DNA of 64,000 nt from Ruditapes philippinarum (lineage: Eukaryota). Positions 1 to 56,300 of this stretch are shown here, piece after piece. Position 1 is the first letter of the stretch. Each line of letters opens with the position of its first letter. Made by a program: the position numbers and the translations under genes. The notes under the pieces are model-generated. The model worked only from the letters and a program-made list of their open reading frames with translations, was not told the DNA's origin and did no database searches. The stretch is taken from the NCBI RefSeq assembly GCF_026571515.1, contig NW_026852589.1, positions 1-64,000 on the forward strand, in the 5' to 3' direction.

Positions 1-2229
1 TTCCTTTTTCACCAGAAAAAATTTTCTTCAAGGTATTAGAAAAGATAGCTAACTTGATAGGAATCTAATTCAAGATAAGCACCCTAAAACAGAATTCAAA
101 CATTTATGCCCACACTTTCCGTAGTATAATCAATCTACAGCATGTACAGATAATATAACACAAAGGAAATGAATATATGGATACGAATAATCCATAAGCT
201 CCACTCTTAAATAGGAGCGAAAGGCACAACCTTAACAATTACATTTGAGCAACAGTATTGATAAAAAAGACTTGAAACGTGATCACGACTAAAAAATAAG
301 TAAGAGAATGGCTAGCAAGAGCAAAATAACCTAAATATAGGTAGTTAAACAACCTATCAAATTCAATAACACAAATTTAAATTAATCCGATTAGAAGTCT
401 AAAAAATAAACCGTTGACCAACGAGATAAGCTGATATAACCATAGGTCAACTTGATTCAAATAAAAACTATATCACTCACAAGAATTAGTCGATTTTAAC
501 AGGTGTATTAAAATACGCTACATTGTATGTTTTCTTGTCTAGGTATTTAACTTTACAGCTCGTTTAAAAGTAGGATACGAAGTTATATGTAATTTTTTTT
601 TAAACAAGCTCTGCAATGTAAATAACTATAGTTATGAACAAGAAAAACGTATTTAGCTGCTAATTCAAATTTGACATCACAGTTTGAATTATTCATATTT
701 TAATATTTGAAACCGGTTACAAAAATTGAAACAAGATAATTTTTATCATTGATATTAAAAAATAAATAAATTTTCAACATAAAATAATTTTTATTTAACT
801 AAGTATTCCAGGATGTAGCAATAAAAATTATATATAAGTATATACATTTCGAATATTAAGTTTATAAAATGTTTGCATATATCCGCATTGCTTGCTTAAA
901 AATACTCACACGTTCATGTACTATTTTATGGTGTTAATCTTTAAGTGTTATATTTTATATTATTTGCTTACACAATTTTTCATTGTTACAGTTGTTAAAA
1001 AGCGTTTGATGAAAAACAAACTGCTTTAATGACGTAGTACATTCTAAGATTACTTTAGAAAAAGAAACTTATTTACTTTGACAATAGAAAGTCTTCATTT
1101 TTCTCTAAAAAAAAAAACGTCCGTTATCTTATGGTATAACTTGTGTTATATGATTTAGTCAAACGTATTACTATTTTATTGTTGTCTATAAGGTCTTTTA
1201 TGTTCATTGATAAATACGTTTTACATTTCTAACATGTACGGAACGAAGAACGGAAACAATTAAAGCACTCTGCATTATCAAGTCTGATATCGGCTATGAT
1301 CTATAATGCATCACATAAATCTTTGTCATTTTAAAGTGCAAGTATTTAATTTTCCTCAACATGATAATAACGAACATGTCTTTGTTTTGAGGCTTTAAAG
1401 ATTGATTTAAGCTTTAACTTTATTTTTTGTGTCTTACTTGGTTAGCATTTTGTGTCTATATCACTAGAGCTTGCATTGACGAAGTACATGTAAAGAAAGA
1501 TCGCAATATTATTGCTTAAACCTCTTTCAATTGACTTAAAATAGCAATTGAAGATTTAGATATAGATGTGAAAGGGAATTTAATTTTTGATTTTTTTACG
1601 TAGATATAACATTAATCCCAATCTTAAATGCATTTAAAACGTGACAGTATATATTGTGTTTAATAAGGAATTTAAAGTGTTTTCATTTAAATTAAAACTA
1701 TTTATAATAATATTTAACTAAGCATGTTACTATAAAAATATTTGTCATTCAATGCGTCCGATGAATTATTTTAGGAAGTAACATTCCATTTAAATTTAAA
1801 AATTATTACGGGAAGTAGAAAACATAATGATATATTTACATCATATCAATTTAAAAATATTATATAATTATCGGGAACTTTTCCCAAGTTTTTATGAAAT
1901 TGGCAAACGTTTGATTACAGTAACAAATTATTTTTCCAATCATTGGAAAATTATTACCTTCTTTGTGGATTTTTGTTTCAAACCTACTTTGCGGATTTTT
2001 GTTTAAAAAATGTAAGTTACCATTTTCGTTCAGAACCCTGAACAAAGCTATCATTAGCATTTTGAATAATTTCCTTTCTCTGCATACAATATATCACTTC
2101 ATTTAATACACTGTTTTAACTTACCTTTGAGTTTAGTAATTGTACAAAACATCAAAATACGATTTTGAAGGTATTGTGTCATGGTAAGTTATAGTTTTAG
2201 TCGTTGATTATTTTATATCCCTGAACATA

Positions 2230-2520
2230 GTGCAATATTTGAGCACATTTAACCCATTTGTCCTAATGACAATCTCTACAAACATCATCCTGTGATAAAC
2301 GTTTTTGCTGTCAATTGATAATTGCTTTGCTACGTGTATAATGAAGTAAATATCACATGTATGGCCCTTTATGGCTCCCCACTGATGCAGTTTCTTATCA
2401 CATGAATGTTTTGTTCAATATTTTTATGTTGTTACTTCAGTTTATGAAGGCTCTAATGAGACAAGCTATTATTGAATCATTTAAGTGTAAAACATTATTT
2501 TGCTTGTGTCATTTGAAAGG
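2230..2520. promoter_or_regulatory. Conserved non-coding element (candidate enhancer)
   Basis: High identity to 24520-24835. GCTGTCAATTGATAATTG, TTTATGG and TTTATGA (TALE/Hox-like sites) are retained. Confidence 0.4.
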
Positions 2521-3361
2521 AAATTGTTGCATTACATGAATTTGTAATTTGCAATTCAAGTTCTTAGCAAATGGCCGGCTACAAATCGCAGCAAAATCGC
2601 ATACAACTATAGGCAATATTTATGTAGAAAACATAATATAACAATTAAGAACCGTGTCAAATGATGAAAACTTATTTCCCCTTTTGCCAGTCTATATAAT
2701 GAGAAAGAATACAATTCGACACTACCTCCTATAATTTTCTCCACGAAAGAAGTCTACATTATGTTGACAAAATGCTTTACCGAATCTTAGTTACAATTTT
2801 AACACAGATGAATAATGCTAGTAAAAGCTTTTAAATTACGAAACATTACCGAGTTATTGCATTCCCTATTGGTTCCTCATTCGCTTTTTACGAGTTTTCA
2901 CTCAAATGATTATTTAATTCAAACAAAATGTCCACGACATAAAAACAACGGTATTATCTCGTTATAAAAAGTTTTGTATTTGGAATTTTTATATTCTTTT
3001 CGTCATAACAAAGTATACATGTACAGACTGGTAATTTGTAACAGCTTTCATAAAGTATTAATTTGTTGCATTCGATGGTTTTTTATTCTTAACTGTGTTA
3101 TACCGTCTAAAGACGCACTGCCGATTTAATGTGACTTTATTTGTATTGCGTATTGTGCTTTGTATTGCGTGTTGTGAATCTTTAGTTTATTACAGTACGT
3201 AACTGGCATTTAATTAAATTGTTCCAGATGATCAAATCAATATATTGAATACTATTAAAGGTGTATTTCTTATTATTTGTATACGCTTCCTGTAAAGTAG
3301 GCATATATGTTTATTTAAAGAGTTTAAATTATTATACTTGTCTTCAATGACCGATGTAAAT

Positions 3362-5113
3362 CACGGTGATAGGGCGATTACCACAACTTTTCCGCGCAAC
3401 GTCAAAATATCTTACTTCTGTCCAAGACACCGTATATTTCTGTCAAACAAAATGGACAGCAAGCCTGTAACCAAGACGAAAACAACAGGTAATTTGCTCA
3501 AAACAATGTAAAATCATCATTTTTTTTTCTTTTTCATCAAATGTGCCATTGAATTTGATACTCATTTATCTTTACTACATGCAAAATGCTTCATTAATTA
3601 AGTCAGGATAGTGAAAACATTTAGGGCATACTGAAAAAAATCTTGCTTTGATTACGAAATATAACGTATTTCTAGTCCATTCAGTTCATATAACTGGTCA
3701 AAATACAATATAAAAATGTATATTATTGTCATATGAACAAGTTACAATACATTAATAACCCGTTTTTCGTATATTTGGTATGATTTTTATGATTCCACGT
3801 GTGTATTTTAAGGCACCGCACAACTTTATCAATCATTAGAATAAGGCACCACATTAATCCTCCTCAAAATCACCGCGTTTTTCTTGTTTTTTAGCACCGT
3901 TTGTTTTTGATAATACTGTTTGCTTTCAGAAAAAGAAGACGTTCAAACCTATGTCGGAGCAAGCCAAAGCAACGTGCGAAATTGGCAAAACTGAAGATAC
4001 TGCAGCAACTAGTGAGCGCCCAACTAAGTCTTCTGATATCAGCAGTACGCCAATGGATCAGCGGCTCCCTGTATTTCACACGATATGCTTAACGCACCAC
4101 ATACGAAAAAGAATATGAAGTCAAACTTTCGCAAAAGATTGTTTTAAAAAAGCACATTGGAGACCATGACTGAAGTGATTATGAAAGTATTGCCCGGGTT
4201 CCTGCAAAAACTACACAATGAAAATTTGTGTTATGATTTTTGCAGTTTTATCAAATAAGTATACAATAAGAAATTCCCATTAACAAATATTTCATTCCTT
4301 TTGTTTCTCGATGTTGTTAGATGGTAAAGTCTGACAAGAACTTCGATCTTTCCATGAGGGGTTTATCAGTTTGAATAAATTCGTAAAGGAAAAGACATCC
4401 TGATCTATATATAGATACCATTGCACTTATCAAACTGGTAGTATTAACACAGATAAGACCTTCAGAAATAATTTTCCATAACATAACGTATGATAACAGC
4501 AATATAACATAACAGCAAGTAAACAATCTTTCATCAAATAAAACATACTTGTAAGAAGATTGTATAATTTAAAAGAAGACGGAGCCAGTATTTATCGGTC
4601 TAACGGAAAAAGAATGCGGTGTTTGAATTCAGTGTTGTACGGTGATCCAATATTCAGGTCAGTAGGCCTTTTTTCAACATATATTCCCTGAAATTTACGA
4701 AAGAAACACACATTTTTGTATGGAACTTGAACTTAGGGTTATTTATAATAAATATACGAGCTCGTTAGGTCATAGAACAAAGACATCGTCGTTATAACTC
4801 ACGTTTTTGTGACAAGAACGAGTCATCTTGAGGTACACACGATCGTTTGTAAACACTATTTTTTTCGAAGTATGTGTTTTTGTGTGAATTGTATTGTGCC
4901 AGATTAAGAATAAATTGTCTCAAAAATTCGATGGAATACTTAAACAATTGGAATAATCTTGCAATGTCCAGCAGTAAGATATTTTGTAGGCTATTACCTG
5001 GAATTTGTTTATCCCGCCATTAATATTTTGTCCAGAAATATACGGTGTCTCGGTCAGAAGGATGATATTTTGACGTTGCACGGAAAAGTTGTGGTAATCG
5101 CCCTATCACCGTG
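3362..5113 (+). mobile_element. Non-autonomous, internally deleted DNA transposon with CAC...GTG ends and a 5-bp TSD (Transib/RAG-like end signature)
   Basis: 81-bp TIRs at 3362-3442 and 5033-5113 with 5 mismatches, starting CACGGTGATAGGGCGATTACCACAAC. TAAAT flanks both sides (3357-3361, 5114-5118). The paralogous site at about 26820 is empty (CCGATG-GGAAT-GTTTAAGAAT). Confidence 0.93.
3452..4657 (+). pseudogene. Decayed, spliced coding remnant of the transposon's protein
   Basis: Putative exon 1 at 3452-3488 (MDSKPVTKTKTT, then G|GTAATT donor). Acceptor TTTCAG at 3929. From 4166 the frame reads MTEVIMKVLPGFLQKLHNENLCYDFCSFIK*VYNKKFPLTNISFLLFLDVVRW*SLTRTS. Near 4540-4657 it reads NILVRRLYNLKEDGASIYRSNGKRMRCLNSVLYGDPIF. 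In-frame stops and frameshifts are present. Confidence 0.6.
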
Positions 5114-8100
5114 TAAATGTTTAAGAATATATTCATGTAATGATTGAATATTTTAATTACGTGATTTACAATATGATAATATTCACAAGTGACATTTAAA
5201 TGATTGCTGCTTAAATGGAATTTATTACATTTCATCAGCTTAAACAACATCGCAAAAACATGCATTTGTAATTTAAGTTGTTTTTATAGCTTTGAATCTA
5301 CTATCATTATTGTTTTTATTTTCCTGGTATCCCCTATTGTTTTAATTGCATTACACGATTTAACTTGCAAAATCTTTCAAATATGAAATCAACACAAATA
5401 TACAACCTAAATGACACTTTGATGTGTCCTTACATCTAACGATGCTAGCGTAATTTCTGTATATTTCTTTTTAACATTACATGTTTAACACTTCTATTTT
5501 TTATTTTTTTTTTACTTTTTCTTTGCAGAAAAAAACTACAGTAAAATAAGAAAAAAAGTTGTAATAAATAATCAAAAATATATTTTTTTAACAAAAAAAA
5601 AATGCAAATGTAAAAAGCTTCTTTTAAATCATTAGAAAATCAAGAGAAATTTTTGTATTGCTAAAAAAAGCAATCAAATTTAAGAGCTGGCAGGAAAGAA
5701 TTATTATTAGTATAGCAGAGATAATTTAATGACACGAAATCTAAAGGGTAAACACATTGATTCGTTACACTTAGTTGCAAAAGATCGTCTAACTTGCTTT
5801 CAAAAACGTTATTTTTTTAAAATATTGGCGACATTTCTTTATGTCTACAAAATTGTTGTTTATTAGATCTAACAGAGGTAATTTCTAAAGATTTTACATG
5901 AACTTTTGTTGATTGTTTCCAACAACGAAACTATTGCAGAATGACGAAACTGTGCGCAACTGTTAGCTGTCTTGTGTGAAGGTCAGGTGTCTGTAATCAA
6001 CAGCGATTCCTTCTCAAGCGAAAGGTAAATTGACGGTGAGGTACAGTGAAGGCCCTTAGAAAGTCTTCTGTAGATATAATTTATTAAATGACATTCACAA
6101 GAGCTTGATAATGATCTTGTCATCGCTTTCTCAGCATTAACAATATCAAACTGTTAATGTTTTGTAAGTAGCATAACCTTTAAAGCATATATATTAACAC
6201 ATGTCCTTAGCCTCAAAATGTGCCCGCTGTAGACAGAAGTCATTTAATATACATGTACATATTCCATACATTTAAATCTTCTCCTGTGAAACTACTTATT
6301 TCGTATCATTCAGATAAGTTTGTATTTTTAATTTTTTTAATTGAACAAAAATTTGCGCAAATTATCCGAGGGTGCGTTTCTATTCAATTTAATCAGATCG
6401 ACAATTATTTTGATTTGTCCTTCTCATCGCTTTGGCAAATTAAGGACTTCAAGAAACTAACTAAATCAAATTTTATTTAGTATGTCTGGAAACGTTGTAT
6501 TTAAACTATTTGTCCGTTAAAACACTCCCCGGCAACTGGGCTATATAATTTTTCTTTAGATTTCATCATTGCATACATTAAACAGTTTATCTTACATAAT
6601 TGATTTTAATTTACAAAAATGTACATACCTTCCCCATCATGAAATATTAGGTGTTTTCAAAGATGAGACTTAAAATGAAATAAAATTAGGTTTTAGTTTG
6701 TTAGTTTATTCCTTTAAATGTTTTACCGCTAATGCAGAGATTTTGTTTACTTTTTTGGTACTTTCATTTATTCAATCCAAGATGTCCTTGCAGACTTGAT
6801 ACAAGTTTTACTGATCAAATATTAAAATTCCTCCCTATGGTTTTCTGACATCCCAGTTAATCCATTTTTAAATTGTTAATGCAACATGTCCCGACTAAAT
6901 ACAATTTATCAAGGATAATTTTACAGGATGAAGAAACAACTCGTAAAATGTCCACTTTGATGCCCTTATCATTACATAGGTTAACAATATAGGCAAATAT
7001 ATATTATCCATTAATTAATATAACGTGGATCGAAACACAATGCTATCTGATTTGTACGAGGGGGCAAAGCGTGTATGTTTTAAGATTAAGCAAATGACAA
7101 CATAAATACGCTCATATTTCACAATGCTTAAGTACTTGTGTTCTGTTTGATATTTTGACAATATAATAGTCAAATATTTTAACAGTCATCGACTATAAAT
7201 ATTTCACTGTACATTTTATATGTTTACCATTTTTCCTAGGAATGGTCATTCAACAATTTCTACAACAATTAATTATATTAACTGTAGTATTCTGAAGCAC
7301 AATTTAATTATATACAATGCATGGCTTGCTAAACATGTCTCTTATTGAACATGGACGGAAAATAAGTTCAACAGTATTTAAACATTCTCGTGTGAAACTA
7401 AAAGTGTTGTATGCAGTTACTTCTAATTTATCATTAAAATATTTCAGGAATCTATCTATGCGTGCTTCTTTGTTTACAAGCTTGGCATTTCGTCTTATTT
7501 AATTTGATATTCCACAGAGTTTTAATAATTGTAGAAATGTAGCATATAATTCAATTTACCCACCAATATATTTATTTAATTAAATTGCTCTGGCACTCGA
7601 TAGGTTAACCTGATACGGGATTTCAGAAAAAAGCAAAAGATAATTTCGTTAAGTGTACCTAGCAACTGTTAAACCTCTTTTTATTAACATATTACTGAAA
7701 AAGGTGTAGGAATTTTTGAAGTTTCTTTTGTATTTGTTTCCATTTCAACCAAATGACACATTTCAAAGCAGGTTACATTGTTCGTCAAATCCAACATGAT
7801 AAGCTGAACCCAAAGCATGTACTTAATTTGATAAGCCTAAACAACATCCAGTAAATGTTGTATATTTCAAATTGACGATTTACTCTATATCTAGTTAAAC
7901 AAAATGTAACTTAACGTTGGAAACCTTTGCTAGTCTAAGATAATATATCCAATCTAACACTTTAATTGTGTTTACAAAAAAGCTACATGGACTTTTGAAG
8001 AAATAACAATGTACAAATATTTAGGTCTGATAGAATAATTGATTCCTATAAGTCATTGTAAACAGCGTTCATTGCGATTTCATCAACGCTTTGCTTAATT

Positions 8101-11045
8101 AGTTTTCAGTCGAATTATTTCTAAAAATAAATCCGTTTTGTGTACTTTATACGTTAGTACGCCGAACACTTAAAGTACTTCATGTACGAAAAGGTTTGTT
8201 GAAAGTACATCGAACCGTTTTATATCGAATCAACCTCAATTTACTAAACAATTTGGATTTCAGAGGGAAAAACAGCTATGTTAAATGATGCGAATATTCT
8301 TAAGCAATCTAACTTCTCAGTTATTTCTCACTGACAAACACATTTAAATATGTTTCATTTATTGTTGTTAATGGTTACAGTTTAATGGTTTTATTAATTG
8401 TTTTCTTACGTTTTTTTTTCATTTTTGTTAACTGTTGATTGCTTATTATTTTCATACTAAGTCTATATGTAAGTTATGTAAGTATATGATTCTACAAGAT
8501 AGTTGTCTAAAGAGGATTTGTTTGTAACAACTATGAAAGATAGCAACTGTTTTGTGTTTTGGTTGTTGTTTCTTTTTCTAACTGTCCGTGACATAAAAAA
8601 AACGTCACCGGTAAAAAACCGTTTCTATGCGACATCTGTTACAACGGTATAAAGTGACATTTCTGTATATCATTTCTTCTGTACCAGATGAAAAGGAAGA
8701 AAGTGTCTTCGTTCAACTTGTTTCAAGCTTAAATTGTCTCAATATTCAAATACATACGTCTGTCTGATCAAGATTGACGCAATTTCAAACACATATATTT
8801 CATATATAATGCTTGTTTAAAGACAATTTACATTCTTTGATGATTGATTTCCTAACTCTGTAACATATTTTTAAACAATGCCAGCATTTTAAATGATACA
8901 GTTATAAGTTATTGTCGAACATTGGAAAATGTTATCGCTGACAATTTAATATATTTAATAACTTTTCTAAGATTTTAAATCAATGTCACTTATCAATGTA
9001 TATGTTAGAGAAAAGAACTTTAGAACGATTATGACGAGATACCGATAAATCAGTCAATCTTTTGAAATATTTTGTCATAATTTCAGTTCAACTTGACAAT
9101 AAAATGGAGCAAAATGTTTGTTTAAATTTTTTTCTAGACTACAATATATTGGGAAAAACAATAATAAACTCAAATATTGTCTACATTTTGCATACAATTT
9201 ATTGAATTGTAGTATTTTTTTTTGTAAATTAAGTATTTTTGAAAGCGGAAAAAATCAGTCCGCTAAATATTGTCAACATTTTATGCACAGTATAAAGACG
9301 TTGAAGCATTGCTTATAACTAGACCTCTTTCGAAAGAAAAAGGTTTATATGTTACCAGACTGTATTTAATTGGATTTAAGGGACAAATTGCATGTTAAAA
9401 GCACCTGCAATGTTACGATAAACTTAATACTTCCTAGGTGTAAAAATGTCATTTTATTTGATTTGATAACCCAATAAAACATGCTTCGCAATATGCTTCT
9501 CTAAACGAAAATACATGCAATTGTCTTGTAAGATTATTTTGCTTTTAAATTAGTAAAGTCTTGAACACACATATAGTTTATTTTCCATTTTCGTTGCTCA
9601 ATTATTTCTTTGTAAAGCTACCTTGAAAACAAAATAGGTGCTGAGAGGTAAGATTATTTTATCGTTTTATATAGTTGACTGTCTCTCTCTGATATAAGTA
9701 CACACAAGTGACACAAGTTTAGCAGTCTTGCCGATCGTGTCTGTTGTTTACCAACAAACCTCTTATTTCTTCTGTCATATAAGTTTTGGATTATTGCATA
9801 AATGAAGCAGATAAATAAATGAAATATGTATTTTATCTAATAAATTAATTGTTTTCCGTTCACGGTTGTCATGAAAATGGGTACCCAAAATTGTAACAGG
9901 ATTGTCGATTATATCAACCAATAAATAAATGTTAGGATATTTTTGATAAAGTTACAACAAATGTTTTACTGATTAATGACTTGCATACCATTTGTTTTTC
10001 TGAGTATTATCAAATGACATTTTTTTCATATATCAATATTTCTGTTAATTTTTTTCTATGTGTGAAATGTGATATATTTTTAACTTTAGAATTGATGTCA
10101 AGTAGGTGATTTGATGTGTTGATATATTGATTCTAGCTCTTTGTTCATAAATTTCAATGACATAATCGTTAACATATCTCCAACCAAATAAAAACAAGGT
10201 TAAACCTTTATTACCACATCTAATAAACATAAGTACATTTTTGTTAAATGGCAAATAACGTGCCTATGTGTTGGGTGATATTACAATGAAATGTGTTATG
10301 CCGAATTGAACACAGTTTGTTCATTGATTTCAGGAATTAAACAGACTGTGTTCAGTAATGCGACCAATCTTATTTCTTAGTGACAAATAAATTTAAATGT
10401 TAACATTTAGGTGAATGATTATGATATGAAAACTTAAATGCTGCCTTCTTAAAAACAATATAACTTTTAACTTATTTGATTATATAACAATATTTATGTG
10501 TCATGTAAACGTTTGTTTAGAAATTTACATCACAAATTGGATTATCTCAATCATTACTTCTATGGTGAGTATGAAGATTCCATTCTATGTTTTTATTCAG
10601 GTAACTTCGAAAATCAAGAGAGTCTTTATATTCAACATTTTTTTTAATTAATTTCAATTAATAAATGAATAATCTTTAGACAACGACATACTTGTTCATT
10701 TCAAAGTAGGGAAATTTTAAAGACATCCATCAAAAAGTTGAATGTAGTAAACTCAAATGAAGCGCATTATAGCTCCAGTTAAAAATATAAACATTTTTAA
10801 ACAAAAATGAAAGACCTCAATGTTTGTTTATGTCACGAGCAACTCAGAAGCAGCTCCCTATTTCATAAAAAAATGACGAAAATGGATTCCAAAATCGAAA
10901 TATATATACCTTATATATTCAAAGATTTTATTTAAATACATAACCACCACATATCAACGACTTTCTACATTTTCATTGCCACACATGTCATTGACATTAC
11001 TTTAGACTGAAATTTATTCTGTATTCTGATATGTTATCCATTAGC

Positions 11046-11340
11046 ATTTCCTTCACGCCTTGATGTGTAATGTTCACTATTTTAGAAAGGACTTTACTTT
11101 AACCAGCCGCAATCATACATAGTGTTTCCATATTTAAAACACACACATGTTGCATTTACAGTCGTTGAGCAGAATACTTTATATGAATTTGCAACAATAA
11201 TCAATATGCTTCATGACCTAGTCTTGTGCAATTAACTTCACCTTAATCTCTCTGTCAAACCGGCTGTCTTGACAACTTACCAGAAGGTCATTATGTCCTA
11301 AATGAATCGTCAAGATTGTCTGATTAATACTTACTATATA
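11046..11340. promoter_or_regulatory. Conserved non-coding element (candidate enhancer)
   Basis: High identity to 39896-40180. An 8-nt indel (GACAACTT) argues against coding across that point. TGACCT, AGGTCA and CTGTCA motifs are kept in both copies. Confidence 0.45.
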
Positions 11341-13493
11341 AGAATGCAAGTGGAAATGGCATTATTTTTCTTTCGTGTACTCAACTATATTCAACAAAAA
11401 TGCAAGACAATTTGTATTTATTAATAAATGATGTCTAAATCAGTACTGAGTTTTTGTTCATTAGAATTCGGATTAATTTATCTTTTACATATATGTAACT
11501 GCTTGTTTATTGTTGTTTTTTTTCCAATTGATCAAAACACTAAAAATGAAAATGTGTATCCCTGTTTATAGGATAAAGAGTGTTAAAGAAAACAAATCGA
11601 TACCACCTTCTTTTATGGTCTCAGCGAACAAAAATTAAGAGTTTAAATTATCACGCGAATTCATCTTTTTCTAAGTCATTAATTTTGAATCGTATGAATA
11701 CTGAGGCTGAAGGTATTTTAAATTAAAATGCAGTATATTCCCTTATGGATTTCTCATTTGCGTTTCACGTTTACACGTATGATAGTTCAATTTAGACACT
11801 TATCATACAAATTAAGGTTTTATTGAACGACAGGCGATGAAAAAGTGTTATTTTTCAGGACAAATAGAATTATATTTAAGATATTTATGAGCCCGCATTA
11901 GTGTTAACCACATGAAATTGTTACTTGTAAACGTTTAAATTAAGAAAGCAATACCTTGACACGATGATTTTAATGTACGATAGTGCTTAAATATGTAAAG
12001 AAAACAGTTTCAATTTAACATTATCGAGAGTTTAGTATAACTACATCACATTGAATCAAGTGTTTAACTGGCAAAAATTGAACAAATTAATAAGCCTCAA
12101 AAGATTTTAAAATACTTGTTGGCATATTAACTTCATTATATGTTTAAGAGAATAACACAGAGAAATACAGTACAAAATTATAGATTAATTTTTTAATCGA
12201 TGTCTTTTTTTCATGAACCAAATAATCAGCTTATTAAAACATATTCAACTGTACTAGAACGAATTAAAATTTATTTCAAGATATCCTTGTAAAGTAAACG
12301 AATGTAAAAACATTACAGTTATTTCTGAAATTAACAAAATAAGGAAATAGAAAGGCTATAGATGTTTTTTAAACAGGGAAGAAAAACTACTCTGGTACAA
12401 TACGATTTTACCTACAATTAGCATGTCATATATATAAAAAGGAGAACAGAAGTCTTTTGATAAACTTAAAGAAATATATGTATCTTACTAAAAATGCATG
12501 TGTCTTCAACATTGCTCTCACAACAATTTCTGGATAGGATATTCATAGGCATTATAAGCTGTCTGCCTAATCCCAAAATTTACTTTGTAAATTTTATCAT
12601 AATTATGTACAAATGTATTTATTTTGAAGAAATATATCCAAACCGACAAAACCTATGGAAAACAATATGGGAAAAGGGTGATCCATCGGAAGTAATAATC
12701 ACATCAAAATTACCTGACAATTTAAGACTCGATTTCATTGTGTCTGTTCACGAGGGACAATGACAAAATGAAAAAAGGCAACATCACTCACGTCCCTAGC
12801 ACTGGCATAAGCGGTACTCAATTTTCAACGCATAAAATTACTGCAATTGATGATCCCAAAGGACCATAAAAATAAAAACACTGACGTGAAATGCGGAGCA
12901 ACTTTTTACAGCTGCATCATATCACTTCGTTCCTGCTGCTGTGAAGTAAAACAATCTGGAAAATTGTTATCCCTTCAAAGTATTAAAACAGACTAGGTTT
13001 CATTGAGATTGTACACAAGGGACAATGCAAAAACAGCAACATCCCTCAGGCCCACTAGCACATAGTTCGTATTTATAAATATCAGTTCATTTTAGTCTGA
13101 TGCAAGTTGCTACCAGGGGCTTTAAATATTTATTTGTAATCTTTTTCTCTAAAACGGTAATACCTTAAGCGTCGATGTTGTGTAAGAAGCATTACCTTTT
13201 AGTCCTTAAAAACAGTTGTATATCAACAAATGTCCTTAGCGTCAAAATTGACACTTAGGCGAAGTTGTTTTGTCGAAACATTTTACACATTTAAATCTTC
13301 TCGTGTCAGTCGACTTTTTCAAGTAGATTATCTTATTTGTAACATTTTTTCGAAGAGTTGTAAATGAAAGTAAAACGCAGAAAAAAAGACTTAGTTCAAG
13401 TCATAAATAATTAATTCATTAAGATTTGAAATTCGCGCTGGATTTTTTTTGTTGATATTTCCCTGTCACAGAGCTACGTACATGTTTTCTGTC

Positions 13494-13629
13494 NNNNNNN
13501 NNNNNNNNNNNNNNNNNNNNNNNNNNNNNNNNNNNNNNNNNNNNNNNNNNNNNNNNNNNNNNNNNNNNNNNNNNNNNNNNNNNNNNNNNNNNNNNNNNNN
13601 NNNNNNNNNNNNNNNNNNNNNNNNNNNNN
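13494..13629. other. Assembly gap (136 N)
   Basis: Run of N characters. Confidence 1.
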
Positions 13630-16024
13630 GTTGTTGTGGTTTTGGTTCGTTGAATTTATCTGTAACCCTGCAGTCATTAAATTTATCTGCTAATATAACA
13701 TTAATCATTAAATGCTTTGTCATATTGTTGATCTTTACATACATATTTTTATTATTATATATTTTCCCTAAAGGTTTTTTCTCAGTTGTGCCATGAAAAA
13801 AATATATAAAAATACAATAAAAGGTTGAAATGAATGAAATCAGGTTAACGTTTGTTTAGTTTATTCATTAAATCGTTCTCCACATTTTGTAAAATAAAAT
13901 AATAGTATATGAAAAATTATAAATGTTGAAATAAAATTGATGTAAACAATATTGACAAAATCAGGGGCCGTTTAATATATATTCGCAAGACAAAAATAAA
14001 CGAATAAAGATAAATACATATTTAAAATGATAAAACAATCCGGAATTTGAAATACTAGTGATTGTTAGTAAAATTCATTTTTATTTCTTAAACGTAGAAA
14101 TTGCCTTCGATGCATAGGTCACATGACGCATGAGATTTTGTCAAGTACAAATTTGGTTCAAGTTTTATTGTTAATGCATGCTTCTCTGAATTATTCAACG
14201 TTGATTACATCAGGTGAATGATAAATATCGAATGTATCAATTAAACTTGATATAAATTTTTCTTCAGACATAATCTTCAATTCCATCAATATTACTGAGA
14301 TGAAACCGGAATTTTGTACATTTACATTATTTTCCAAGACTCAATTACCAATAATTTGACAGGCCCAGTTTATGGTTACAAAATATAGGCCAATCATTTC
14401 TAAACCAAGCAATCAATAACTTTCTCGTCATTGTTATTTATCTAATATCCTTACTGCATTGTATGATTTTTATTGCTTCAACGATATTTAAAATACATTA
14501 TTGGGATATACTTTAAGGATTTTTTTCCAGTTTACTAGTAGTTTTGCGTATAAGGTTACTGCAAAATTGAAACATAAGAATATGGTATAATGTCATTGAC
14601 TGATGTCTCAGTAATAGTATATTATAATGATATATGTTGTGAATGTAATGTAGAAAGGAACATGTTTTGTCTTCTTTCAACAAGCAGCATTCTATATTTC
14701 AAATATTGTTAACATAATGCATTTGCACTTATATCACATTTTCGGCTGATTAGTCGCCTAAATGAACTTCTTAATCTACACAAGCAAACTAAAAAATCTA
14801 CAAAATGGTCGAAACAATTAACGAACTCACAGATTAAAATGCATTGTGAAAAGTTGTTCTCCGTTTAACCAGTTTACTAGAAATAGCGTTTAAGGGTGAC
14901 GTGATAGACAGCAGAAAAAGCTCAATGATTAAATTCATCTTTGCTGTGTTTCTACAAAATACTAAAATAAGACATTTTTACATAACAATCACAGATTCAG
15001 TTTATGGCCTGATACTGTACTCGGATAGAAAAGGAAACTGTTATTCTTGACGTGTATTTTTGTGACTTACTTCTTTTGTGCACTTTCCCGCCGTTCTTTA
15101 GATTTTGGTTCAGCTCCAGTTGTCCTCATATACATTACAGATTGTAATCAGCTTTAAAAAAGAACTGTTCATAAGTTAGCCCGCTACACTACCTATTCAA
15201 ACCCTTGTATTGTGAAGAACAATTGAATTCTTAAAGACATCGTTTTCGAGTCAAATTAACTTGTTAAAGATGTTACATAGTAAACATTGACTAGATATAT
15301 ATTTGAGAATTCTTAAATGTTTTCATGTGAAACTATAACCTGCTATTTAATGTTTTTTTATAACATTATCAAATTATTTTGTTTATTTCTATCCAACACA
15401 TTTTGAAATCAATCTGAAGGTGCTTCCCTATTTACCAGTGTAGGCTTTCGTCTTATTTTAGTTGATATTCCACAGGGTTTAAATAAATGTAGAAACGTAG
15501 CAAATAATTCAATTTTGCATTTGATTAACTTTCTCCGGTTTTCTTTAGTTAAACATTAAACGTGATTTCTGATGAAAAAGGAAAAAACCTGTATTGAGTA
15601 ACTGTAAAATATATTCTAATTAACATTTTTCTGTAAATGAAGTTTAGTTTTTTTGTATATCCAAACAAATAAATTATATGTTTTGAAAAATGCATCAAGA
15701 GTGTCAATCATATATACTCCGCAAAAATGTGTTTTTCTCTGCAACTGGATGACTGATTTATCAGGTATTTTACACCGGTATGTAGCTTTGATACCGTTTG
15801 CCTGAGTGTGTGTTTTACTTTCTTTTTTTTCTCATAAAAAAAAATAAACAGTGTTAAAAATCCGATAAGCAACAAACAGACCGATATTCCTTCAATTCTA
15901 ACAAATTAACTAACAAATTAAAAGGGGGATAAGTAACGCTACTTTTTGTAAGCGGAGAATATTTCAGTTGCCGATTTTCTTAACAGGTGGGTATTGCGCA
16001 ACTTCCTTTCGCTAAGGTAAAGAG

Positions 16025-16420
16025 GATGTTCAAGTTTTATACAGTATTCATTTTCATCGAGTGGTATTGAAACAAATATTTCACGAGTGGTGGTAGCCTC
16101 ATGTGAAAGATGATAATGTTTATACCACCGGATGAAAATAAATCCTGTATGTATTGAAAAGAACTTGATTTTTTGTTTGTGTTTAATAAATACATTTTCT
16201 CTTTTTGGCCTTACCTTACAATTCTTAAGAAGTCTTCTTTAATTGTGTGTATTGGCTGAGTTAAGAAGAAAGTAGTCCGGCAAGTTACCAGTGAAAATAC
16301 AGAAAATAAGTTTCACTGCATTGAAACATTCTTTTTACAGGGAAAATACGGACAATGAAAATACGCATTTTATTTCATCAATATTTCTCCATTTTTTATG
16401 TATAAGTATATAATTAATCG
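16025..16420. mobile_element. Short non-autonomous element with an internal palindrome, present only in copy 1
   Basis: TTTTCATCGAGTGGTAT...ATACCACCGGATGAAAA forms an imperfect inverted repeat (about 16051-16138). Copy 2 joins GCTAAGGTA directly to ATTATTAAAG at about 42610-42630. Confidence 0.65.
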
Positions 16421-16569
16421 CGTTATTAAAGAATATAAAAAAATATAAAACATGTTTCATCGAATTATTCAAGAACCGTTTAATCAGGCTTTAAACAATT
16501 TAAACTTCAGACTGGACTGTATAATGTTTGCATCGGTGCTTGACTAATAATTAAATTTTGTCAAATTCA

Positions 16570-16670
16570 AATGACGTCATCTTATAGCGCCTTTATGAAT
16601 GCATTACATATATAGGATGACGTCATCACGCTGCGTACGAATTGGCGCAGATTTTTCTTATATACATTGC
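16570..16670 (+). promoter_or_regulatory. Candidate CRE/CRE/CCAAT/TATA-like promoter or enhancer
   Basis: Two perfect TGACGTCA sites (16572, 16618), then ATTGGCGCAG (inverted CCAAT), then TTATATAC. The paralog at 42784-42880 keeps TGACGT twice, ATTGGCGCAG and TATATAAA with similar spacing. Confidence 0.45.
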
Positions 16671-18754
16671 ACCAACTGGTGTAGGAAGAAAGATTTGGCG
16701 TTAATGTTTGTTAGATTCATTTTGCCGATATGAAACGAAAATATAATAAGAACGCGTTTTTATTGCTTCCTTGAAAAAAGACTTTATTAATTTCTTTATC
16801 CAAAGGAGAAAAAGAGCCGCATAGAAATGTAATCTGACAGTTTAACAATCTTGTAATTGTATATCTAGTCATCTAACTCTTTATTTGTGTTTCTCAAGTT
16901 ATATAATTATCTCTATGCGTAAACCTTTTTCGGTTGCCGACCACTAAATACCCTATATCCACCTGACGTAAACACCTTAATTATTAGTCTAAATCTTCGA
17001 TGAAAGTTACATTTCTATATCAAGAAGTTTAAAGACAAAAATCAGTTGTTTTTTTTTTAATTTTTTAAAATTACTTTGAACAGTCTTATATTGAATAAAT
17101 GTTAATTTAATAAACATTATTGAATTCAGAGTAAAGATGCTAATTATGTTCAGTGATTTAAATAGGTAAAAGCAATCTTAATTTTCAATGACAGGCGAAT
17201 TCGAATGTTGTTATTTCATATAAATGAATAAAGTTAACTTATTTTTAGAATGAAGGTACATTTTCCGATAAGTGAAAAAAACGTGAACACGTCAAACGTT
17301 AAATTTGTTTTTTTTTCAATTATTGATCTGGTAAAAGTACATTTGACTGTCTTATATCCAAATAACCTCATTTTTATAAACCTTATTGATAAACAGATTT
17401 TATTCAGTGATGTGGATATGCTTAAGCAATATTTGATTTTTTTTTCTTATTCTTCCTCTTTTCTTCTTGATGATAACACTTCTTCTCATTTAACAGAAAT
17501 GAAAGATCTTTATTTCTGTAAAAAACACCACTTTCCGGTTGTTCTGTGTTGCTGGATCGTGTAGGGGGTGCATTTACTGAATATCACCTTTCCTTGTTTA
17601 ACTACATTTTCATATTTCACATATGTATTGTTTATTTGTATGCAATAGAACCTTTTCATATGTTATCATTTATATCTCTCAGGAATACTTCTATATTTAC
17701 ATGATAAAAGTTTGTTATTACAAAGAATGATACTCTTAACAACTGAATCACATTTCCTGAACTGAACTGATATGACATCAGCATTAAAAGATTGAAAACG
17801 ATACTTTGAAAATAACGTCATATTTCCAACCTGCTGTGAAATGATGGTTATTTGCAAACTGATGTAAGTTTGATACTCTCAGTTGTTGAAATGATATGAA
17901 CAACATTTCACATTTAAATCGTTGTGCAATTAGAATATAGCACAGGTCAGAAACATAAACTTTCATTGTATAAAGTTTGTATATTCGAACACCCCTCATG
18001 TAAGTGATAATTTCATTTGTCATTATTTATAAAACTATAAATAAATTTTCTTCTTATTTTTTATTAACATATCTCTATAATGAGAAACAGAACATTTATA
18101 AAATAAATTTAAGTGTGGTTATTAAAACTAACCATACAGCATTGCTGTTAGTACGCATATATATACGTAAGCGTGGGTAAGCGTGACTGAATATCATCAT
18201 CATTTTTACAGTAAGTCAAGCAAGCAATACATATAACTTTATCCCAAATTATACATTTATAATGATTTATTTGTATGCATGAACATCACGATACTACTTT
18301 GTTCACATTTTTTCTACTTTTATGACTAAGTTTGAGTGCAGCGCTAGTCACACAAGGTAACATTAATATCTTCAATATTACATTTTTTTAAGGTTAACAA
18401 TACCGCGTTTTCATACACATAAAGATGAAGGCAGCCTTAATTCGGTCAGCTTAGTGAAACTACAGGCTAGGACATTTCATTAAAACAAAGAAATAACAAT
18501 ATAATTATTGTGTAAAAGACACATTGGACTACATAGAAGAGAACAATATTGAATAACCTCATCAAAAACATGCAGAAACAGTAGTCAAGCTAAGATTCAT
18601 CATTTTTTGCCATTATTGCGTTTGACTTTTGTCTGTACTGCTGTAATGTGTTACTTAATAGTATGTGGTTTTTTGCCGAAAAGCTACTCTAAGCCAGGGT
18701 GAAAAGGACGTTTGAAACTGATTCGTTTTTCAAGATATCTTTCCTTGCCACAAA

Positions 18755-18920
18755 AATGTCACCAGTAGCAGACAAATCCGTTTTTATCCGTCATCAGTTA
18801 TTATGATATAAAAAGACATTTCTGGATAACAGTTCTTCATTATCGGATTATGAAGAAGAGAATGTCTTCCTACAACATTTTTATAAACATTTTATGAAGC
18901 TTATATTGTCACAATATGAT
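18755..18920. promoter_or_regulatory. Highly conserved non-coding element (candidate enhancer)
   Basis: About 7 differences in 165 bp against 47920-48085, while the flanks are much more diverged. An older paralog lies at 8590-8745. A 1-nt indel and an in-frame TGA argue against coding. Confidence 0.5.
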
Positions 18921-20794
18921 GGAATTTAAATAGATACTTTCATCTGTATACATAAGTCCAGCTTAACCCACTTTCAAAAACTATACAAACTAAAAAGGCG
19001 TATACATGCTTGTTGTAACTGTAAAAACTTTGATAAGATTATTACGAAATCTAGACTAGCATGCTATACAAATTGAGTGTATCAAAGTATTCTTGAAACT
19101 ATTAACTCCAAACCGCTACTGGAATGAAGTTTTTTTTGATGTTGACATTTTCTAGCACCTCATAAACAAAGTGTCTGTTGAAAGAAATTGGAATGTTTGT
19201 AGAAACTTTAAGTTCCTAACTTAAAATCGACATTTAATTTGCTCTCATTACCAAATCAAACAGGATTTGCATATTTGGTTATTGTATTTGAAAGAAAACA
19301 AATTGTCGTTCAGGATTTAAGTATTGTATTTTCAATGGTTTCGTTTTCTTGTTTTAATCCGTGTGTTTAGTTCAATAGGGATAGTATCAAATTTGCAGGT
19401 CAGGCATCGACAATTCAATCTTAAAGAAGGTAAAATGTATCAGAGTTAAATAATTTCGGACATTGAGTCTAATTGTCAGTGTCTTTCACCGCTTATTCAG
19501 AAATTGGAAATAGTCGCAGGAAGCAATAACTGGTTACGTATCAAGGTTTGCCGGTTGGATTGACTTACCGCTGAGATATATTGAACATAAAATTGCCTTA
19601 ACACCGACACAATAATGGTATACCATCGGGACTTGATTTAAATTATACGGCATTTATAATTTGTTTATTTTTTTATCTTTTTTTTAAATTCCGTTAAGTA
19701 GGCATATTTTTTTATTTTAACAATCAGTCCTTGCATTTTATTTAAGGTACAAGCAAGACAGTTCGTGTTAGTTATTTTCTTTTTACTCCACGAAGTTTAA
19801 ACGATTGTGTAAATAAACCAAATCAATAAATAAGTAATACTTAAGCAATACGAGAATAATAATAAAAAATAATTACAATAGTAAAATGGACTGCTGATAA
19901 TATCGACGCTAAAAGAGCTTTTAAACTAATAAATTTTACGAACTTCCAGTCGCGGTGGTATGTGGCTAGTTATATCTACATTTGCTCTTTGCGTCACTGC
20001 TTTGATTATATACTTGTTTTTGTTCTTGTTATAACATACTTTAATACATTTATTTTATTATTATAAAGATTGAGTTACCAAATGTTATCAACAAAACAAA
20101 TTTATTTATTAGCAAATTTAGTGTCAATTCGTTTGGTTAAAGTACATTGCACTTAGTTATGCTGCATTAAACACAATTTTGTTCAACATACCGATGCCAC
20201 AGGAATTTAACAGATTATCTGCTCGGTGAATGACATTTATTAGCAAGGTTAACGTTTGAAAAAAGTGGCATTATGATGATTTTGATCTCTGTTAAATTGA
20301 GCCGAATTAACTTTTAATTTCAAAAGATTCTCTATTACCTTGAAATTATTATCCATCATTTACAATATAGTATGGCAATGCTATTTCTTCTTTAATATAT
20401 AAGAATCTTTATTTTATATAAAATGAATAAACGCAATTTTCGGGAAGCTATAAATAATCGATGCATTCACGTTTAAAATCTCAAAACGCATAAACACAAT
20501 TTTAAAATAATGTTTCTGAAATTTGAAACAAAATGCCGTTTGTTCATTAACATCCGTTTTTTTTATTTTGTTTGTTTGTTTTATGTCGCTGAATCAAAAA
20601 TTTACGTTGTAAGTTATTTTATAAAATATTGGACAGAAAAGAAAAACACATCTGATAGGAATTCATCAACATAGGAGTTGAAACCTACCAATAGATTAAT
20701 TGACATCCTTTCTGGTGAAGAAAGTGTTCGTGTTCGGTAGATGAAACAATTTAAAACCTTTTAAAAAAATAATGCATTTTTTATAGCAATCATA

Positions 20795-21015
20795 TTGAAA
20801 CGGGTGATGCAATTCCGTACTATATTTGTAATTGCCAAACAACTGTCACTTAAATTGTATGCCTTTCATCAAAGATAAGATTAATGCAAGGCGGCAAACG
20901 TAAATATAGTGATAATATAGTATGTGTATTGTTGAGACATTCATAAATTTTAATGAATACGTAATGAAGCTCTTAATGCATGGCGGAGTTTTTATGGAAG
21001 ACAACTGACAAAATA
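20795..21015. promoter_or_regulatory. Conserved non-coding element (candidate enhancer)
   Basis: High identity to 50455-50675. ATCAAAG (TCF-like), CTGTCA, TTTATGG and TAAT motifs are retained. Confidence 0.45.
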
Positions 21016-21199
21016 ATGATACAATGTTGTTTTTAATTAAAATTAGCATGTTCAATGTCATATTCATGAAAAATGAACAGAGATGTTATATGATCATCTT
21101 TTATTACAAAAAAACAGCAGAAGCATACTCTGTGGTAAATAAATAAATCAATTGATAAAAGTTAACTTTATCGCATAAATTATGGCACAGGAGTATAAC

Positions 21200-21320
21200 A
21201 CAGGCAGGTAGTTAGGTAGTTAGGATGGTAGGCAGGCAGGTAGACAGGCAGAGGCAGACAGGCAGGCAGGTTGGCAGGTAGGTAAAAGTAAAGTAAGTAA
21301 GTGAGTGAGCGAGTGTGTAT
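21200..21320 (+). repeat. Degenerate (GGCA/GGTA)n and (GTGA)n microsatellite
   Basis: caggcaggtagttaggtag...ggcaggcagg...gtgagtgagc. Copy 2 has a (GTGC)n tract at the equivalent position (about 50935-50985). Confidence 0.85.
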
Positions 21321-21794
21321 TAAAGTCGTTTTTCATCTCTTTTTATTCGTGATTTCGCTCTTGGTCACGTATCAATTATTATTTCTATTTATTTATTTTT
21401 AATAACATTTAGTTTATGTTCCAATATTATTTTTTGTATTATCTGGAGGTCACCATATCAATTTATGTTCTATTTTTAAACAGTATTTTGCGGCCAAGCT
21501 TTAATTTAATTTATTTATTATTCTAACCCTATCGGAGATTTATCGTTATGTTATATACACATTTGATCGTATTTTGCAATAAATATTCTGTATTTCGCTT
21601 GAAAAATGTAAAGTGTATTAAAATGAAAACACACAATGAAAACAGCCGTTAAAGAACGTGCGCTTCTAGCAAAACGTTTAAATTGCAAACTCCGAAACGT
21701 AAACAGATTTTAACCACCAAGCATATAGTCCAGCTTTATTTTTTCTTGGCGTGTTAGAATGGAAATATATATTTATTCGTCGTGCAATATATAG

Positions 21795-22230
21795 CGGGTA
21801 TCGAATGAGTGTCAGTTTAATTCTGAATTTCTTGAATGAGTTGCATAAAATTATAACATACGAGCCTCTGATAAGCATATTATTATTTTATATATTCGGT
21901 TATGAACTTTCACGAATTTTACTTTCTCATTATCATATACCTATAATAAAGACCACTTAATGTTAAAAATAATCATTTTTTTATTGTGGCGTCTAAAGTA
22001 TAACGCTAACACTTCGCGCGTCTTAACGTTATGTTTGTATAACGCAAATGACGTCAATTCAAAATATATTTGCAATACCATTGTTACGGAGTTGCAAAAA
22101 CGACACGGATATTTGATAAATAGAGGATATTGAATGAGTGTATGTTTAATACTGAATTTATTGAACGAGTTGAATAAAATTATATTATGCGAGCCCCTGG
22201 CGATTTTTTGTTACGTTTTATTTGAGTTTA
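21795..22230 (+). mobile_element. MITE-like fragments at the end of duplication copy 1
   Basis: About 75-bp direct repeat GAATGAGTGT..TTTAAT.CTGAATTT.TTGAA.GAGTTG.ATAAAATTATA...CGAGCC.CTG at 21803-21870 and 22132-22200. A related ATAGAGGATAT occurs at 51758, the end of copy 2. Confidence 0.55.
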
Positions 22231-26212: not shown

Positions 26213-26901
26213 AAAATGTTTTTAGATCTTATATAAAATTGACATGTAAATTACTTTTATCAGCAAATCTGATTATTTGTATATTGGTTATACAAATAGC
26301 AGAACATAGATGAATAATGATACTAAAAGCTTTTAAATTACGAAACATAATAAAGAAATTTCATTTCCTATAGATTCGTTATTCGCTTTTCCCGAGTTTT
26401 CACACAAATGATTATTTAATTTAGACAAAATAAAAAGTCGACGACATAAAAAAACAACGGTATTATCTGCGATAAAAAGTTTTGTATTTGAAATGTTTAT
26501 GTCCTGTTTGTTTTAACATCGTATACATGTACAAACTGGTTATATGTAACAACTTTCATAAATTATTAATTTGATTCAGTCTATGGTTTTAATGTATAAC
26601 TGTGTTATGCCATCTAAATACCCATTGCCGATTTAACGTGACTTTCGTTTTATTGTGTATTGTGAAATTTTAGTTTATTACAAACGTTACTGGCAATTTG
26701 TTAAATTGTTCCTGATTATCATATCAAGATATTCTATAATATTAAAGTTGCATTTCAAATTAATTGTTTGAGCTTCCTGTAAAGTATATATGTTTATTTA
26801 TTATACTTGTCTTCAAAAACCGATGGGAATGTTTAAGAATATATTCATCTAATTATTGAAATATTTTAATTATGTGATTTGCAATATGATAATATGCATA
26901 T

Positions 26902-55734: not shown

Positions 55735-56300
55735 TGGCGATCCGTGCAAAATAATACAGCTTCCTTTAAAAATGTATCAATTAATAATTTATTGCAAGCA
55801 ATTTAATTGTAAAATAATAAAATTATTTTTGCAATCTCTTCTATCTTATTCATGAGTCCTTGCAAAAAAACAAAAACTGTAACAGCTGCCACATTGACTT
55901 TATTGTTGATTTATTACAATGTCAATGTATGTAAATCGGTAAATGTGGACAATTCTAGACTAGTAAGATGTATCTGTTGTTGAGACAAGCAATAACACTG
56001 AATGCATTCGTAATGAGGATGTTGTTTATATGTCAAGGAACAAAACTGACAACACTATGATGACATTTTGTTATTATAAAGATTGGCATGGCAGGCATAT
56101 AATATAGTCGTGGCAAACATATAAAATAATACATGATATCTGGCTAGTAAATATAATAACACAATCGCGAATACAGAATCTAACAGAGCATGAATACAAT
56201 GAATATAAGGAAGAGGAAAATGAAAAGAGAGAAGAAAACTCAATCAAACATATGTAATTTGCAACTGCTTTATTCACTATAATCATTGGACATTGTCAAG
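55735..56300 (+). repeat. Left arm of a diverged inverted repeat
   Basis: Reverse complement of 60215-60810, e.g. GACTAGTAAGATGTATCTGTTGTT vs AACAACAGATACATCTTACTAGTC, and GCAATTTAATTGTAAAATAATAAAA vs TTTTATTATTTTACAATTAAATTGC. Confidence 0.9.

Follow-up and report, generated by a model that had tools for sequence, protein, structure and literature searches.

CAC termini combined with a 5-bp target site duplication (TSD) form the published signature of Transib and RAG-like (RAGL) transposons (PMC1131882, PMC7204232). Elements of the P superfamily make duplications of 7-9 bp (PMC3698922), and PMC7776569 states that the way in which P transposase produces its staggered cut of 17 nt is unknown. 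Lambda-type exonucleases accompany transposases in KolobokE elements, in which a PD-(D/E)xK lambda-type exonuclease is encoded downstream of a DxxH-type DDE transposase, zinc fingers flank the core and TTAA is duplicated (PMC9587614). ISL2EU elements of the PHIS superfamily also have such an enzyme, YqaJ, in an ORF separate from a PIF/Harbinger-type transposase with a THAP domain, together with AT duplications and GG ends; its role is stated to be unknown (PMC4482050). Here we describe a decayed transposon copy of 1,752 bp (~1.75 kb), found within the 64,000-nt stretch of DNA that was analysed (the window). We read it as a probable non-autonomous member of a lineage of P-element type, shortened by internal deletion; the transposase of this lineage is predicted to hold a lambda-type exonuclease within its catalytic domain. 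In contrast to KolobokE, the exonuclease is nested, the ends are CAC and the duplication is TAAAT.

The element is bounded by 81-nt terminal inverted repeats (TIRs) at 3362..3442 (plus strand) and 5033..5113 (minus strand), which were delimited by inverted-repeat pairing and by other copies of the element. Both start with CACGGTG and are complementary at 76 of 81 positions (94%), with mismatches at positions 34, 51, 53, 60 and 63, which confirms an earlier note that described symmetric TIRs. Four further CACGGTG sites in the window all lack TIR context. An 18-nt motif (TIR positions 42-59) has an extra subterminal copy at 4969..4986 (minus strand, 17/18 identical to the left copy), which is a candidate transposase-binding site. 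P elements likewise have a repeated subterminal motif; their TIRs are 31 nt long. Outside the TIRs, TAAAT is read on the plus strand at 3357..3361 and 5114..5118; the chance that two random places of the window share a 5-mer is 0.0023. The flanks match a duplicated segment at ~26.3-26.9 kb that carries one pentamer, GGAAT, where the element sits (26826..26830, plus strand, placed by flank match). This empty paralogous site supports a target of one pentamer, as the same note had proposed for TAAAT, even though GGAAT and TAAAT disagree at 2 of 5 bases. Where joints between contigs lack the element, one pentamer is likewise kept, but these joints are probably the same ~26-kb paralogue and hence give no independent support.

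The 5-bp length derives from one insertion, and a longer reading of the same site has to be weighed. The 7-mer TGTAAAT is present twice, in the left flank (which ends TG-TAAAT) and at the right end, where it shares two bases with the end of the TIR; filled and empty sites fit a 5- or 7-bp reading equally, and duplications of 7 bp are made by Galileo and 1360 (PMC3698922). The element could then be an ordinary P-superfamily copy whose right end is two bases shorter than its left. Such a reading requires asymmetric ends, and other copies argue for symmetric CAC...GTG ends, because their flanks break at 3362 and 5114. Loose ends at 3362 were found in 14 contigs of sequencing run X6 with differing flanks (flank agreement 0.47), and at 5114 in five contigs of run X14 (0.55). 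Since left ends mapped on the right could give loose ends, only one X6 contig is unambiguous: it has right-end-specific sequence (4922-5113), its match ends exactly at 5113, and a different flank lies beyond. We consider the 7-bp reading very improbable. Together, these contigs demonstrate that copies of the element are present at many other insertion sites.

A putative first coding exon (3452..3507, plus strand; 18 codons plus 2 nt, phase 2) starts 10 nt inside the left TIR, with a phase that fits the downstream acceptor. It would be followed by a GT-AG intron at 3508..3929 (plus strand), whose acceptor was placed by homology and whose donor is putative; a closer GT at 3489 is A in nearly all other copies. 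The acceptor at 3929 has the same place and phase in two related loci, L001 and L002. A decayed second exon (3930..4347, plus strand) was recognized by homology to the relatives P0004/P0003 (80-83% identity) and P0011/P0010 (43-46% over 4073-4345) and to the family HMM (E 1.2e-15). It contains a basic N-terminal stretch, a linker and a helical segment just before the predicted helix-turn-helix (HTH) of the transposase, and is broken up by frameshifts as well as three in-frame stops (4145, 4256 and 4325). The spliced, decayed ORF proposed earlier is decayed as described, and its splicing has partial support: the acceptor is shared with L001 and L002, but none of the contig matches listed contains a splice joint. 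Run X23 bears the label RNA-Seq, but we did not take it as a sign of expression, as its pattern fits Hi-C: 66% of placed reads run on into unlike sequence, loose ends cluster at GATC, and both strands and the intron are equally covered.

Transposase homology stops at 4346..4348, an internal deletion junction that P0003 keeps, whereas P0004 continues past it into the transposase. The earlier reading of the copy as derived by internal deletion from a CAC/5-bp-TSD family, one other than ordinary Transib or RAG-like elements, is upheld. P elements likewise have internally deleted derivatives that retain 5' exons. The 3' half (4349..5032) contains no transposase remnant detectable with the family HMM (best E 0.04) or with a C-terminal HMM. 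Both peptides singled out earlier are present in the sequence, and the second (4542-4688, plus strand) lies outside the transposase as far as tested, with no match among 154 family proteins at E<=0.05 and no usable match in an Atlas search. Pfam searches of the element's own reading frames gave 0/8 and 0/7 matches. On the minus strand, splice-like sites (acceptor-like at 4688, donor-like near 4549) allow us to guess at a possible exon of a second, convergent gene at 4549..4687, with an ATG at 5020 and two stops; the search found no homologue of it, a result of little weight.

On sequence homology, the first peptide is a true transposase remnant, and protein matches uphold its suspected likeness to uncharacterised mollusc proteins. 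A chain of matches leads from the remnant to P0003/P0004 (88% and 86%), then to P0010, P0011 and P0012 (58, 58 and 50%; P0012 is from Mytilus coruscus), and also reaches P0013/P0014, which carry YqaJ. P0004 matched a 38-sequence family profile with probability 99.7 and E 7e-26; globin-like Atlas matches of its residues 85-185 were rejected, all being under 0.9. A quick tree places the closest relatives within the family, beside the full-length P0022 (SH-aLRT 94), which is 38% identical to P0011. These closest relatives (P0010, P0011, P0012 and P0017) stop before D2, the second acidic residue of the DDE triad, and the D2 and E of the subfamily are taken from P0022. Family proteins measure ~1,200-1,700 aa, with named members from mussel, snail, annelid and amphioxus, among them P0016 (Batillaria), P0023 (Owenia) and P0037 (Branchiostoma), and form 3431 clusters at E<=1e-3 or 673 at E<=1e-30. 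Because the gathering profile included the exonuclease, the top 150 family matches are biased to exonuclease carriers.

What connects the TIRs with an intact transposase is a single remnant of ~90 codons. Ends and remnant might differ in owner: a non-autonomous Transib/RAG-like element could have acquired the 5' part of an unrelated P-type/exonuclease transposase gene. The published Transib/RAGL signature at the ends would fit such a capture, as would a 3' half without a transposase match and the lack of a full-length copy among the contigs searched. However, what remains is exactly the start of the gene, immediately inward of the left TIR, with an intron acceptor shared with L001 and L002, as expected for a deletion derivative; the longer relative P0004 has the same intron end and runs on into transposase. 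Inside the element there is no second TIR, just the one 18-nt motif copy. The ends themselves also depart from the RAG pattern. No recombination-signal nonamer was found (4/9 at spacer 12, 3/9 at spacer 23), and the best score, 6/9 at spacer 11, is reached by 14% of shuffles. TIR positions 8-10 read ATA, in contrast to AAA in protostome RAGL elements (PMC7204232). At this single insertion the target is all AT, whereas Transib and RAG prefer GC-rich sites (PMC1131882). We found no RAG1 or Transib match by Pfam or sequence, RAG1 Pfam domains being absent from 58 long family proteins, and detected no RAG2-like gene. The lack of a nonamer at 12/23 spacing and of recognizable RAG1/Transib motifs, already remarked on from the sequence, holds. 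We regard capture as improbable. Chapaev/CMC elements, compared by description and by Pfam, make 2-4-bp duplications against 5 bp at this insertion, and no CMC Pfam match was obtained.

To characterize the enzyme, we used a predicted model of the relative P0031, rather than of the window copy, for all structural comparisons (pLDDT 83.8, pTM 0.77). The best Foldseek matches were P transposase structures 6p5a and 6pe2 (E 6e-6 and 1e-5). Alignment with Drosophila P transposase gave Z 28.5 and rmsd 3.0 over 377/442 residues at 12% identity; the aligned range of the model, 97-1132 (P residues 136-569), indicates that both sides of a large insert assemble into one P-like core. The HTH, split RNase H and helical insertion domain of P type are all present in the model. 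HzTransib (Z 11.7, rmsd 4.6), RAG1 (Z 10.7) and BbRAGL (Z 9.8) were far more distant, with rmsd of 4.6-4.9 (PDB 6pqx, 6b40), as was the hAT transposase Hermes (Z 8.6). The resemblance of the ends to the V(D)J heptamer therefore leads nowhere in terms of RAG kinship: beyond CAC ends and a 5-bp duplication, the likeness is that of a distant common DDE fold.

The predicted DDE triad (D220, D759, E1090) is found in 35/38 sequences at positions that fit strand or helix ends in the model, and a DxxH motif lies between D2 and E in 38/38. Fold, triad with DxxH, introns and similarity to PF21787, the N-terminal part of the P-type RNase H, all recall Drosophila P and THAP9 (PMC7776569, PMC3698922). The PF21787 match covers its second half only and falls only downstream of YqaJ (2/28 and 16/30 proteins); it stands at a recurrent place in 18/58 proteins, and 2/58 pass the curated cut-off. 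The D1-D2 spacing is 494-579 aa in the family, in contrast to 73 in Drosophila P (D230/D303; PMC7776569), owing to an insert of ~450 aa, a helical stalk plus the lambda-type exonuclease. No THAP, P GTP-binding-domain (GBD) or P RNase-H-C Pfam domain was detected in the 58 long proteins, many of which are single-exon calls that possibly lack the first exon, which bears on the THAP result; the window's 5' exons likewise gave no THAP. The helical domain aligns structurally with P and has conserved D973, Q975, F984 and D1015, with no Pfam GBD match. These residues presumably resemble the P motif.

These features leave some room for a family outside P, either a DxxH superfamily of its own or a divergent lineage akin to Kolobok, with P merely its nearest solved structure. 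No Kolobok, MuDR-family or Dada structure was among the structural matches listed, and searching the PDB by sequence profile brought up exonucleases and no transposase. The missing THAP match, the 5-bp duplication, the 12% identity, the few Pfam P matches above cut-off and the lambda-type exonuclease of KolobokE (PMC9587614) would all suit this view. Against it stand the P alignment (Z 28.5 over 377/442 residues, compared with Z 8.6 for Hermes) and the recurrence of PF21787 at the same place. Moreover, in KolobokE the exonuclease follows the transposase and Kolobok duplications are TTAA; two KolobokE cores in the supplement of PMC9587614 lack an insert following D1, and none of four family peptide motifs occurs in its four supplement files. 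We judge a non-P origin unlikely, and a P-element-type enzyme remains our reading.

In the model, the lambda-exonuclease (YqaJ) domain occupies approximately residues 397-609 of P0031, on its helical stalk between D1 and D2. It aligned with LHK-Exo with Z 15.7 and rmsd 2.5 over 172/195 residues; LHK-Exo and lambda exonuclease followed P transposase in Foldseek (E 3e-5 to 1e-3), and exonuclease matches in the PDB profile search had E 4e-4 to 4e-3. YqaJ was matched in 21/28 proteins (E<=0.05) and 19/30 (E<=0.5). A PD-(D/E)xK site of R416, D512, E532 and K534 is kept in 36/38 sequences, which we take to be the exonuclease site, including its phosphate-binding arginine. Both putative active sites, DDE and exonuclease, thus appear conserved.

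The copy would have been moved in trans by a full-length partner, by cut-and-paste, with the DDE site cutting and joining 3' ends at a 5-bp stagger. The role we prefer for the exonuclease, with a confidence a little short of even, is that it resects the 5' strands of the donor-site break, which would favour homologous gap repair and copying of the element back from the sister chromatid. As a weaker candidate, it may act like TnsA and trim or cut the non-transferred strand at the ends of the transposon, which would leave a long 3' extension similar to that of P; other roles seem unlikely. TnsA itself has a PD-(D/E)xK fold. The parallel with Tn7-type TnsA-TnsB would be one of working only, a second nuclease partnering a DDE enzyme, where cleavage of the non-transferred strand falls to TnsA, which also extends the RNase H sheet (PMC13598128). 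That system is bacterial, with an unrelated DDE clade and an endonuclease acting outside the ends, in contrast to the core-inserted lambda-exonuclease motifs here.

More broadly, and with appreciable doubt, the family may represent a widespread undescribed animal lineage, possibly of superfamily rank, of two-nuclease, THAP-less P-type DDE enzymes with a working lambda exonuclease grafted into the core. It would have reached the Transib/RAG end signature independently, its exonuclease would process the non-transferred strand or donor break in cis as a eukaryotic TnsAB counterpart, and many elements now classed as non-autonomous Transib by their ends alone might belong to it. Among the literature listings covered, none described a P-type transposase with a nested exonuclease; Repbase, Dfam, Kojima's 2020 review or the remaining 21/33 supplement files of the bivalve transposable-element survey PMC10294476 may already have a name for the family. 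On their own, CAC ends and a 5-bp TSD are likely insufficient to identify a RAG relative, and should a P-fold enzyme produce this signature too, assignments of non-coding elements to the RAG lineage from their ends need rechecking, especially in molluscs. A natural P-type enzyme with its own predicted 5'-strand nuclease would allow second-strand processing and donor-site repair to be tested cleanly with two mutants. The nested, conserved exonuclease would also be a good substrate for asking what transposon-carried lambda-type exonucleases do, and the window provides candidate ends and a stagger length for assaying such an enzyme.

Searches for a complete partner recovered no full-length copy with these ends from the contigs searched, and no relative among viral contigs by protein search or by a 23-nt TIR pattern. 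Metagenome and genome contigs yielded four short loci (L001-L004), and a further search added two more stretches of the same two genomes; none of these matches the element by blastn or contains CACGGTG. In L003, D1, exonuclease, D2 and E share one stretch of DNA that has no intron and a single frameshift, which indicates that the nesting is continuous in genomic DNA. Although L003 and L004 lie in bacterial metagenome-assembled genomes, we read them as host contamination, not bacterial elements.

The element spans 3362-5113 (1,752 bp). As the earlier note had described, it is bounded by symmetric terminal inverted repeats (TIRs) of 81 nt, both starting with CACGGTG. The two arms are complementary at 76 of 81 positions. 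TAAAT adjoins the element at its left and right ends, a shared 5-mer with a chance probability of 0.0023, and the empty paralogous site in the window's tandem duplicate holds a single pentamer, GGAAT. These observations uphold a 5-bp target site duplication for one insertion, with a different pentamer at the paralogue. Other copies were seen through public contigs, and the duplication length comes from the single insertion in the window. Among the public sequencing runs, 14 X6 contigs with unlike flanks lost the match at 3362 and 5 X14 contigs lost it at 5114, while a single X6 contig with right-end-specific sequence matched up to 5113 and diverged beyond. These breaks speak against a 7-bp duplication with a shortened right end, a disfavoured reading that is conceivable because TG-TAAAT closes the left flank. 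Four X8 and two X14 contigs matched through TAAAT (window 3357) before diverging and may represent another insertion at a similar pentamer, that is, a target preference.

The absence of an RSS-type nonamer next to the CACGGTG ends was borne out, and AAA at TIR positions 8-10 was also absent. One 18-nt motif of the TIR recurs at 4969-4986, and this additional copy is a candidate binding site. Most matched public records were less than 95% alike to the element, which therefore belongs to a multi-copy family and is one of its aged copies. Several internal deletion joints occurred among the matched contigs. Summed contig depth in X8 and X14 was several-fold higher over the TIR (window 3328-3459) than over most of the interior, which may point to numerous shorter relatives made of the ends alone (MITE-like).

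Searching with the frame at 4148-4324, its stop read as X, matched two proteins (2 of 9 candidates). The relative P0003 and its cluster continue along the window sequence across a junction near 4346, and thus the same deletion is present in other copies; P0004, unlike the window, continues past this junction. A search with residues 85-185 of P0004 gave 33 candidates, of which 5 were longer proteins; YqaJ is present in two of these, and one bears the name Mytilus coruscus. When the five were combined into a profile, its search reached 3431 clusters at E<=1e-3, of which 673 passed E<=1e-30, and 45 of the best 150 matches were at least 1,200 aa long. Four of 20 representatives were named, namely Batillaria (snail), Owenia (annelid, twice) and Branchiostoma. 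The element's similarity is confined to the family N-terminus (family HMM E 1.2e-15), and its closest relatives nest within the family, adjoining full-length P0022 (quick tree, 45 rows; SH-aLRT 94). An internal-deletion derivative is therefore likely, and the copy itself cannot make transposase. The proposed spliced reading frame held in part: the acceptor at 3929 agrees in position and phase with the related loci L001 and L002, and we infer a first exon at 3452-3507 whose phase fits it. In P0003 and P0005-P0009 the second-exon frame crosses the deletion junction uninterrupted and stops a short way beyond it. These copies could, speculatively, encode a truncated N-terminal peptide akin to KP, a repressor of P elements.

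In order to characterize the full-length transposase, we used an alignment of 38 long members for an AlphaFold2 model of P0031 (pLDDT 83.8, pTM 0.77). Foldseek placed Drosophila P transposase on top (E 6e-6), then LHK-Exo and lambda exonuclease, with lower matches to RAG1 (1e-2), HzTransib (3e-2) and Hermes (5e-2). In VIA comparisons, P transposase reached Z 28.5 (rmsd 3.0, 377 of 442 residues, model range 97-1132) and the exonucleases Z 14-15.7 at about residues 397-609; HzTransib scored 11.7, RAG1 10.7, BbRAGL 9.8 and Hermes 8.6. P transposase thus stands far above HzTransib and RAG1, consistent with the earlier note's remark that the protein remnant shows no recognisable Transib/RAG1 motif. 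In the model, the first core strand contains D220, D759 comes after a strand and E1090 is part of a helix, a predicted placement as in the RNase H triad. About 450 residues separate D220 from the next core strands: three long helices precede the exonuclease, and one helix returns after it. Structures of four-helix bundles match over 244-695 (~120 residues aligned), suggesting that the predicted helices build a stalk that carries the exonuclease at its end.

Across the 38 members, 35 keep the triad, all 38 have DxxH and 36 retain the exonuclease residues. D1 and D2 are 494-579 aa apart, against 73 for P transposase in the excerpt cited (PMC7776569). Pfam YqaJ matched 21/28 (threshold 0.05) and 19/30 (threshold 0.5) long proteins. 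The P-type RNase H model PF21787 matched by its second half only, downstream of YqaJ, in 2/28 (0.05) and 16/30 (0.5), and exceeded its curated cut-off in 2 of 58, a set in which THAP, RAG1 and P GTP-binding-domain models found no match. Nesting of the exonuclease is visible on continuous DNA at L003, with one frameshift, which rules out a gene-prediction artefact. L003:1-4165 and L004:1-1167 are animal transposase genes on short contigs of two bacterial symbiont MAGs; we rejected them as bacterial elements and read them as host contamination.

We consider it likely that the element is an internally deleted P-type element, with a family transposase carrying a predicted nested lambda-type exonuclease, and by analogy it presumably works like a P element. 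Since its family has no detectable THAP and it shows 5 bp instead of the 7-9 bp of P elements (PMC3698922, in part), we filed it in the P-type lineage and not as a canonical P member. It carries the end signature of Transib and RAG-like transposons, but its transposase and missing nonamer separate it from them. Architecture, ends or duplication set it apart from KolobokE and ISL2EU, as far as the extracts cited describe these (PMC9587614; PMC4482050). No description of a P-type transposase with a nested exonuclease was found in the literature, a search with Repbase and Dfam outside its scope; that a Repbase name already exists is a real if lesser possibility. For this family, the window contributes a candidate for the end sequence and one for the stagger length.

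Following the P mechanism as outlined in part of PMC7776569, a full-length partner would move the element in trans by cut-and-paste, cutting the target with a 5-bp stagger. Family members are 25-43% identical to P0031 and conserve both putative active sites, so both are probably in use. Free double-stranded ends are the substrate of lambda-type exonucleases, and for this reason we favour, at somewhat under even chances, a role in which the exonuclease would resect the donor-site break and promote homologous gap repair. According to the portions cited, this exonuclease type also occurs in ISL2EU (PMC4482050) and KolobokE (PMC9587614), of different transposase clades, which suggests that its task lies outside the chemistry of excision. 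As a close second, held more tentatively, the exonuclease would trim or cut the non-transferred strand, because P ends have 17-nt 3' extensions of unknown production mechanism (PMC7776569) and TnsA handles this strand for Tn7-type elements (PMC13598128), both as stated in excerpts.

The 3' half (4349-5032), including the earlier note's second peptide, had no relative in Pfam, homologue or atlas searches. Judging from sequence, exons of another, convergent gene may lie there on the minus strand (4549-5020), with an ATG just inside the right TIR and donor-like (near 4998) and acceptor-like (4688) sites of matching phase.

Across the wider window, an old tandem segmental duplication relates about 2,000-21,800 to 24,350-51,800, mostly at 68-84% identity, and many insertions are found in one copy only. 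Its short conserved frames (e.g. 11086-11232, 12470-12760 and 18807-18926) have the appearance of exons belonging to a duplicated host gene, and Pfam gave nothing useful on them. A large old inverted duplication pairs 55743-57926 with 58594-60802 (about 70-77% identity), short tandem-like repeats cluster at 30202-31671, and 13495-13630 is a run of 136 N. Over window 3262-5213, X23, although labelled RNA-Seq, has the properties of a Hi-C library cut at GATC: its loose ends are heaped at that site, and 66% of its reads continue into unrelated sequence.
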